Source: Escherichia coli
GTDB taxonomy: Bacteria > Pseudomonadota > Gammaproteobacteria > Enterobacterales > Enterobacteriaceae
Length of the DNA stretch: 64,000 nucleotides
NCBI RefSeq assembly: GCF_044647545.1
Contig: NZ_CP172818.1
Strand: one strand, 5' to 3'
The translations under genes and the position numbers were made by a program. Below are positions 16,005 to 56,247 of this stretch, piece after piece (position 1 is the stretch's first letter; each line of letters starts with the position of its first letter). Below the pieces are notes generated by a model. It saw only the letters and a program-made list of their open reading frames with translations, did not search any database and had not been told where the DNA came from.

Positions 16005-16043
16005 CACGCTACCGCCCCTGGCTTTACAGCTACCAGAGCACTG
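16005..16043 (-). promoter_or_regulatory. JUMPstart element with ops site (RfaH recruitment) in the rfb operon leader
   Basis: Minus strand reads cagtgctctggtagctgtaaagccaggggcggtagcgtg; ops GGCGGTAGCGTG at 16005-16016. Confidence 0.85.
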
Positions 16044-25643: not shown

Positions 25644-25743
25644 GTCGTTACCCTTTTTCAGGCAATAGTTGGCCCTGACCGAAACGGCCAATTTTGTTTT
25701 TTCGTTATTTACCGGAGAATTAATCCGGTTGATTATTCAACGG

Positions 25744-54774: not shown

Positions 54775-55430
54775 ACTGACGTCCAGCCTTTTGGCGCTTC
54801 CAGCACAACTTCCGTTCCCGGCGTGGAGCGGGAAACCGAACGCAGCGAACTGGATAACCAGCTAAACAGTTCACGGAATTGTAATCCCTGCAGTGGCAAA
54901 GGCTGACGAACGCTGATTTGTGCCAAAGTCTTCATATCCGCCCCCTGAACACCGATGGAAAAGAAGGCAAACTTCTTATCTTCTTCCCCCTGAAACACTT
55001 TGTTGGCGGCAGCCTGCCACTCATCGGTTGGAGCGCCATCGGTGATCAGGAAAATCCACGGGCGATAATAGGAAATACCATTGGCGCGATACTCACGTTT
55101 GCGCTCCTCAACCATATCCAGGGCTTTGGTAATGGCAGCGCCCATTGGTGTATCGCCCTGGGCAAACAGGATGGGCGGGAAAAAATTAGCGGCGCTGGTA
55201 AAGGGTTGTTCCACATGCACCGGGCCGAACGTCACAATACCGAGTTCCACTCTTTTTAAGGCCAGCGAATCGGCAAGCAGCTCATCGCGAAAGGTAACCA
55301 ATCCGGCGTTAAGTTCATTAATAGGTCTACCGTTCATAGAACCAGAAACATCCAGCAGCAAAATGCAGGGACAACGTGGTTCCGGGTTACTGGCAAAATC
55401 GCTGGTGGCAAACGTGATTTGTTCGCTCAT
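54771..55430 (-). CDS. yegL: von Willebrand factor A (vWA) domain protein YegL
   Basis: 219-aa ORF; MIDAS-like motif DVSGSM; overlaps pphC start (ATGA). Confidence 0.85.
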
Positions 55431-55611
55431 AAGAAATCCTTTCTTAGAGAATTATTGAGGTCCGGTATCATACCGATTGCAATAATGAAATAAGAGCAAA
55501 CGAAGAAACTTTCAGAATTAGGCCCGGCGGCGCAGAAAATTTTGCTATTCGCCTCGCAAGAACGGAGAGCCGTCGATTGACACTAAGGGCGGAGTGACAT
55601 AATTTCAGGAG

Positions 55612-55760
55612 TGAGGGTTAGGGAGAGGTTTCCCCCCTCCCCCTGGTGTTCTTAGTAAGCCTGGAAGCTAATCACTAAGAGTATCACCAGTATGATGACG
55701 TGCTTCATCATAACCCTTTCCTTATTAAAAGCCCTCTTCTCCGGGAGAGGGTTTCCCGTT
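55612..55760 (+). ncRNA. sibA: SibA antisense sRNA (type I antitoxin of ibsA); boundaries approximate
   Basis: Plus-strand promoter TTGACA 55577-55582 and -10 near 55598-55605; terminator hairpin ccctct/agaggg plus T-run at 55731-55760; fully overlaps ibsA on the opposite strand. Confidence 0.55.
55652..55711 (-). CDS. ibsA: Type I toxin IbsA, 19-aa hydrophobic peptide
   Basis: Minus-strand ORF translates to MMKHVIILVILLVISFQAY. Confidence 0.8.
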   Translation of the reverse strand: MMKHVIILVILLVISFQAY

Positions 55761-55947
55761 TCAGCGTCCCGCTGAAATCGTCGGCTTACCTCCTTTCGCC
55801 CTGAATGCAGTCTATCGCTAACGCGTGAACAAAATAGTTTCCCCTGTGATTATTGCGTAACGTCTCGCAAAGAATATTTGCTCGCAGGATCGCAGACTAC
55901 AAAGCCTGCGGATTGACAATCTGATTGTGAAGGCATACTTTCAGGAG

Positions 55948-56089
55948 TGAGGGTAGAGCGGGGTTTCCCCCGCCCTGGTAGTCTTAGTATGCTGGCCAGC
56001 TAATCACTAAGAGCACCACGATGATGATCCACTTCATCATGACCCTTTCCTTATTTAAGGCCCCTTCCTCGGGAGGGGCTTTCCCGTTT
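55948..56089 (+). ncRNA. sibB: SibB antisense sRNA (type I antitoxin of ibsB); boundaries approximate
   Basis: Second copy of the sib repeat: promoter TTGACA 55913-55918, terminator hairpin plus T-run about 56058-56089. Confidence 0.55.
55984..56040 (-). CDS. ibsB: Type I toxin IbsB, 18-aa hydrophobic peptide
   Basis: Minus-strand ORF translates to MMKWIIIVVLLVISWPAY. Confidence 0.8.
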   Translation of the reverse strand: MMKWIIIVVLLVISWPAY

Positions 56090-56247
56090 CAGCGTCCCGC
56101 TGAAATCGGCGGCCTACCTCCTTTTGCCCTGAATGCAGTCTATCGCTAACGCGTAGATAAAATAGTTTCCTGTGTTATTACTGGATGCGTGCTCGCAAAT
56201 GCGCCCGTCATTCAGACGATTCCCGACAGTGTTTCATAATTCCTCCA

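Follow-up and report, generated by a model that had tools for sequence, protein, structure and literature searches.

The five Sib RNAs of Escherichia coli K-12 are about 140 nt long and cover the whole of the functional ibs mRNA (Han et al. 2010, PMC2943612). According to the same study repression is cognate-specific with the exception of ibsA, which is repressed by non-cognate Sib RNAs. SibC contains two independent target-recognition domains, TRD1 (+46 to +68) and TRD2 (+99 to +115): the first pairs inside the ORF and the second, helped by the P6 loop, at the initiation region (PMC2943612). Initial contacts between Sib and ibs extend into the flanking sequence, repression leads to mRNA degradation, and swaps of TRD1 and TRD2 switch specificity between ibsC and ibsD. 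Cells without SibA were found to be viable (PMC2943612), so the A module may not act as a strict cognate pair. With respect to the toxin, IbsC is described as helical and depolarises the membrane within minutes, residues 6-19 (the hydrophobic core plus the C-terminal residues) being sufficient for toxicity; toxicity and depolarisation upon overproduction are known for IbsC and others (review, PMC8309996). For Salmonella IbsA, binding to the Fo subunits a and b together with a fall in ATP is described in a 2025 preprint (bioRxiv 10.1101/2025.05.26.656083). Tandem duplication of ibs-sib within one intergenic region has been stated earlier (PMC2887945, PMC2943612); new type I systems have even been sought on the criterion of such a tandem arrangement (PMC2887945).

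Here we describe such a locus in a window of 64,000 nt, the whole stretch of E. coli DNA that was analysed. We are highly confident that it represents a tandem of two type I toxin-antitoxin modules, one being ibsA/sibA and the other an allele of ibsB/sibB, both housed in the 888-bp gap between yegL and mdtA (55431-56318; Table 1). In E. coli K-12 MG1655 the same interval is annotated with sibA (b4436), ibsA (b4667), sibB (b4437) and ibsB (b4668), and the orthology is borne out by the position between yegL and mdtA, the order and the orientation, which all agree. The locus is the ibsA/sibA-ibsB/sibB locus of K-12 in another E. coli strain, and as such already described and annotated. As far as the sequence can be read, nothing in it contradicts two tandem ibs/sib modules. 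The first-pass annotation, made from the letters alone, had proposed the same gene names; these are supported by Rfam, Pfam and synteny with K-12, with the specification that copy B is a divergent allele. A Megablast search with 55400-56330 against 5426 complete E. coli genomes recovered the region from 5419. One of these records, E. coli FDAARGOS_497, is 100% identical over the region, and each of the two ORFs carries an Ibs toxin annotation there. The match ends at query position 800 in many E. coli genomes, which means that the ~120 bp just upstream of mdtA are divergent or replaced there.

Table 1. Features of the ibs/sib locus between yegL and mdtA (positions in the window).
Feature	Position	Strand	Basis and remarks
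yegL	ends 55430	-	vWA-domain protein; coordinates transferred from 100%-identical record
Putative sibA promoter: -35 TTGACA 55577-82, 17-bp spacer, -10 TAATTT 55600-05	55577-55605	+	sequence; start of Rfam model; K-12 layout
SibA antitoxin RNA, 145 nt	55613-55757	+	ends transferred from K-12 sibA (b4436) by alignment; Rfam RF00113
ibsA ORF, 19 aa, MMKHVIILVILLVISFQAY	55652-55711	-	translation; identical to K-12 IbsA; Pfam PF13956; annotated ibsA, WP_010723109.1
ibsA Shine-Dalgarno region AAGGAAAGGG, 2 nt before ATG	55714-55723	-	sequence; in the TRD2 target zone defined for SibC (Han et al. 2010, PMC2943612)
SibA terminator hairpin, 11 pairs, 4-nt loop, then TTTCCCGTTT	55729-55754	+	fold; G+C-rich
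Conserved downstream segment A: hairpin TTTCAGCG-TCC-CGCTGAAA 55759-77, minus-strand AAAGGAGGTAAGCC 55783-96	55758-55871	.	repeat search, MAFFT
Putative sibB promoter: -35 TTGACA 55913-18, 17-bp spacer, -10 TACTTT 55936-41	55913-55941	+	sequence; start of Rfam alignment; K-12 alignment
SibB antitoxin RNA, minor allele, 136 nt	55949-56084	+	ends transferred from K-12 sibB (b4437) by alignment; Rfam RF00113
ORF at ibsB position, 18 aa, MMKWIIIVVLLVISWPAY	55984-56040	-	translation; Pfam PF13956; annotated Ibs family toxin, WP_106421789.1
ibsB Shine-Dalgarno region AAGGAAAGGG, 2 nt before ATG	56043-56052	-	sequence
SibB terminator hairpin, 11 pairs, then TTTCCCGTTT	56057-56082	+	fold; G+C-rich
Conserved downstream segment B: hairpin 56087-56105	56085-56199	.	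repeat search, MAFFT
mdtA	starts 56319	+	coordinates transferred from 100%-identical record

Translation of the two minus-strand ORFs returns exactly the tiny hydrophobic peptides that had been quoted beforehand, and the suggested comparison with Ibs toxins gave a positive outcome. Both peptides match the Pfam family Ibs_toxin (PF13956) over profile positions 1-19 of 19, with 49.9 bits for peptide A and 38.0 bits for peptide B against a gathering cut-off of 27 bits (each query was lengthened by 3-4 in-frame codons from upstream, as the search takes at least 20 aa). A scan with the NCBIfam HMMs yielded no match for either peptide, both of which are very short. Peptide A does not differ from K-12 IbsA at any residue; peptide B shares 15 of 18 residues with K-12 IbsB (MMKLLIIVVLLVISFPAY), the differences being L4W, L5I and F15W. 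Set beside the five K-12 Ibs peptides, both fit the same pattern: a length of 18-19 aa, an MM(K/R) start, an unbroken hydrophobic core and an aromatic C-terminal part that ends in Y. RefSeq names the product of copy B only as 'type I toxin-antitoxin system Ibs family toxin' (WP_106421789.1), and K-12 RefSeq grades IbsB merely as a 'putative toxic peptide'. By position copy B is ibsB/sibB, and on the evidence of its sequence it is a divergent allele. The remark that an ORF finder with a 60-aa cut-off misses these genes is trivially true, given that even a list of ORFs from 20 aa omits both.

On the opposite strand, a search of the whole window against Rfam gave two matches to SIB_RNA (RF00113), at 55577-55726 (+; 147.5 bits, E = 1e-30) and at 55913-56055 (+; 136.8 bits, E = 4.4e-28). 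Both are full length (model positions 1-147 of 147) and lie far above the gathering score of 56 bits, so the Rfam check that had been proposed for the Sib family is answered positively. The RF00113 model begins at the -35 hexamer and stops short of the terminator; the match coordinates are therefore not transcript ends. The predicted minimum free energy is -58.5 kcal/mol for SibA (z = -4.4 against shuffled controls) and -60.1 kcal/mol for SibB (z = -4.5). A consensus structure common to both copies and K-12 SibB-E comprises 42 pairs; compensatory changes occur in 8 of these, which is modest covariation support given six sequences. The structure is built from an outer stem, a G-rich hairpin, a long hairpin spanning the 3' half of the ibs ORF, and an AUGAUGA/UCAUCAU hairpin that covers the ibs start. 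Each ibs ORF lies, together with its Shine-Dalgarno region, within the corresponding Sib transcript (Table 1), which is the geometry of a type I cis-antisense pair and confirms the earlier view that the peptide genes are fully inside plus-strand units.

The -35 hexamer TTGACA that had been claimed for each unit is present in both, and the layout TTGAC(A/G)-17-TAnnnT recurs in all five K-12 sib copies. The -10 hexamers TAATTT and TACTTT agree with the consensus only at T1, A2 and T6. A consensus promoter and terminator scan did not call the Sib promoters or the plus-strand Sib terminators; we ascribe this to the weak -10 hexamers in the former and the interrupted T-runs in the latter, and not to absence of the elements. 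After each Sib hairpin the tail reads TTT, then CCCG, then TTT. Of the 'hairpin plus T-run terminator' described in the first-pass annotation the hairpin thus holds for both copies (11 pairs each), whereas the T-run is short and interrupted (TTTCCCGTTT). The only terminator-like call of the scan concerns the minus-strand mirror of the SibA hairpin (55751-55732, followed by CTTTTAATAA), which is situated in the ibsA leader and could attenuate ibs transcription. The tail of this mirror hairpin (55732-55751) runs into the ibsA Shine-Dalgarno region; in copy B the corresponding tail is weaker (CTTAAATAA). The other call of the scan was a promoter-like site near mdtA.

The two modules are head-to-tail copies of a unit of ~330 bp, as was claimed initially; direct repeats, a start-to-start spacing of 328-336 bp and a MAFFT alignment all agree on this. 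The proposed self-comparison accordingly revealed an internal repeat: four co-linear direct-repeat blocks were found (55598-55871 versus 55934-56199) at 76-84% identity. In a global alignment the homology between A and B spans from about 55541/55877 to 55871/56199. The extent originally given, 55570-56095, contains the modules, though its end falls short, as the repeated unit reaches about 56199. Between A and B the identity of individual segments (MAFFT) ranges from 62 to 85%: it is 67% from the -35 to the transcription start, 62% in the 5' part of Sib, 75% in the ibs ORF, 84% in the ibs translation-initiation region, 82% in the Sib terminator and 85% in the 114 bp past the terminator.

The best-conserved part of the repeat (85%) is thus the downstream segment, into which neither the Sib RNA nor the ibs ORF extends. 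Since these segments are located upstream of the ibs ORFs, they probably represent the ibs promoter and leader. The hairpin within them is perfect (8 bp), and only its short CAGC...GCTG core is common to copies C, D and E. An Rfam search of 55400-56330 at E<=1 gave nothing besides the two Sib matches, which leaves the downstream segment without a described RNA family. The consensus scan called no ibs promoters on the minus strand. Inspection by eye gave TAGACT (55814-55809) and TTGCGA (55870-55865) as candidates, neither with a convincing partner hexamer at 16-18 bp. The minus strand of the segment also carries a strong Shine-Dalgarno-like AAAGGAGGT with no canonical start codon after it. A possible leader ORF behind this element (55783-96) was rejected as unsupported: no ATG, GTG or TTG occurs at a suitable distance, all that follows being an ATT with 5 codons behind it.

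How the modules would operate can be outlined by analogy with SibC/ibsC. The plus strand of each module would give rise to a structured Sib RNA of ~140 nt from its own sigma-70 promoter, ending at the G+C-rich hairpin. With the Shine-Dalgarno sequence, the start codon and the whole ORF of the minus-strand ibs gene within the Sib transcript, each Sib is perfectly complementary to its own ibs mRNA. This complementarity, like the anatomy of the locus, its family membership and its synteny, is observed directly here. First contact with the ibs mRNA would be made through two exposed elements: the 3' half of the ORF would be contacted by TRD1 and the translation-initiation region by TRD2. Mapped from SibC, the equivalents are found at 55658-55680 and 55990-56012 (TRD1) and at 55711-55730 and 56040-56059 (TRD2). 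Pairing would then spread, translation would be blocked and the mRNA degraded, so that the hydrophobic peptide is not made. If made, Ibs would be expected to form a single helix in the inner membrane, upon which membrane potential and ATP level would collapse and growth would stop. That transcription, repression and toxicity take place in this strain we infer from published work on K-12 and Salmonella.

Unit A shows about 6 differences from K-12 in the alignment, none of which is inside the ORF. SibB differs from that of K-12 at 11 positions in 136 nt, changing 3 of the 18 IbsB residues, and all 11 (within 55990-56058) fall in the equivalents of TRD1 (6), the P6 loop (4) and TRD2 (1). Of 5349 E. 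coli records, no more than 61 contain the SibB allele of the window at >=99% identity. The number of modules between yegL and mdtA varies from 1 to 3 by strain, with two here and in K-12: E. coli MS1494 has a single module (locus positions 849-905) encoding MMKILIIVVLLVISYPAY, and E. coli MSB1_8G has three (locus positions 853-1569) encoding IbsA, MMKLLIIVVLLVISWPAY and MMKILIIVVLLVVSYPAY. Residues 4, 5, 13 and 15 of the IbsB-type peptides are variable across strains. Only two aspects can be called mildly new, namely that the differences between this SibB and that of K-12 are all in published recognition elements and that the copy number runs from 1 to 3. It might be argued, as a tentative and rather doubtful reading, that the specificity determinants of Sib/ibs are diversifying between strains at one locus, beyond the divergence of paralogues, while SibB could still substitute for SibA by way of the 24-nt pairing at the ibsA start. 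The clustering of differences in the equivalents of TRD1, the P6 loop and TRD2, the variation of the peptides and the presence of 1-3 modules would agree with repeated unequal crossing-over or gene conversion giving rise to new, mutually insulated specificities.

The same variation bears on the question whether one or both modules are inactive relics, with a toxin that is not expressed or an IbsB that is non-toxic with W4 and W15, and hence neutral repeat DNA kept by hitch-hiking. We consider this unlikely. Although the consensus scan found no ibs promoter, both ORFs are intact and preceded by the same AAGGAAAGGG Shine-Dalgarno region, the TTGACA of both Sib promoters is perfect and neither terminator hairpin is disrupted. 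K-12 IbsB may be graded merely as a 'putative' toxin, yet the IbsB variants keep the aromatic residue 15 and the hydrophobic core, parts that are reported to be needed for the toxicity of IbsC (PMC8309996). Delta-sibA cells are viable, and a copy number of 1 to 3 between strains implies that individual copies are dispensable; against this, nearly all E. coli genomes possess the locus, and the Rfam scores of the two Sib copies are far in excess of the cut-off. Two tandem ibs/sib modules remain the preferred reading.

Pairing between the modules was also considered. SibB (56032-56055) can pair with the ibsA initiation region (55703-55726) over 24 contiguous nt with one G.U, whereas pairing of SibA to the ibsB start region is broken by an A.C mismatch. 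Judged from base pairing, this asymmetry could contribute to the published coverage of ibsA by non-cognate Sib RNAs (PMC2943612). Both the 24-nt stretch and the reported non-cognate repression of ibsA would also suit a situation in which the Sib RNAs act mainly in trans on other targets, or in which each serves the module next to it, the ibs overlap being secondary. We regard this as very improbable, as the computed cognate duplexes are far more stable (-272/-277 kcal/mol) than the non-cognate ones (-172 to -175 kcal/mol), the published TRD1/TRD2 swaps switch ibsC/ibsD specificity (PMC2943612) and no further Sib target is reported in the literature examined. The chance that the real coding genes are the plus-strand ORFs starting from ATGATGA inside the Sib transcripts is negligible: such ORFs do exist (55692-55775, 27 aa, and 56021-56149, 42 aa) and both begin with MM, but they were rejected as coding since their start is merely one arm of the AUGAUGA/UCAUCAU palindrome, they are unlike in length and C-terminal sequence and lack a preceding Shine-Dalgarno sequence, and it is the minus-strand peptides that match Ibs_toxin.

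The value of the tandem ibs/sib assignment is mainly that of a quality check, in that reading raw sequence recovers genes of 18-19 codons and antisense RNAs that are missed by standard ORF cut-offs, and in that the first-pass call proved exact to the base. In addition, the strain variation at the locus could serve the study of how antisense specificity evolves. Elsewhere in the window, Rfam reports at gathering level an algC RNA motif at 25648-25697 (-; 78.2 bits) and two JUMPstart elements at 16005-16043 (-) and 40086-40124 (-), with 60.0 and 57.3 bits. Such motifs are typical of the leaders of polysaccharide gene clusters.

Of the known systems, ibsA/sibA-ibsB/sibB of K-12 (b4667/b4436 and b4668/b4437) is the same in flanking genes, order, strands, spacing and layout of promoters and terminators; the IbsA peptide is identical, and ibsB/sibB of the window differs at 11 of 136 nt. 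With ibsC/sibC of K-12 (PMC2943612) the locus shares the RNA and peptide families, the overall fold and a Sib that spans the ibs initiation region and ORF. The positions of TRD1 and TRD2 can be mapped onto both copies, though the recognition sequences differ. Unlike the tandem pair described here, ibsC/sibC is present as a single copy at fau-serA, and its sequence upstream of ibs is, beyond the short CAGC...GCUG hairpin, unrelated to units A and B. IbsA/SibA of Salmonella Typhimurium likewise combines a 19-aa toxin of the Ibs family with a cis-antisense Sib RNA (bioRxiv 10.1101/2025.05.26.656083), but as a single copy in the yqiK-rfaE region; the Fo a/b target and an infection phenotype are reported for the Salmonella peptide. 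More distantly, ldr/rdl and zorO-orzO/zorP-orzP also have a small hydrophobic toxin and an antisense RNA duplicated in one intergenic region (PMC2887945), with toxin and RNA families that are unrelated to Ibs and Sib. In these systems the antisense RNA, Rdl or Orz, either overlaps no more than a portion of the toxin mRNA or is encoded divergently; Sib, by contrast, extends over the entire ORF and the initiation region (PMC2943612).
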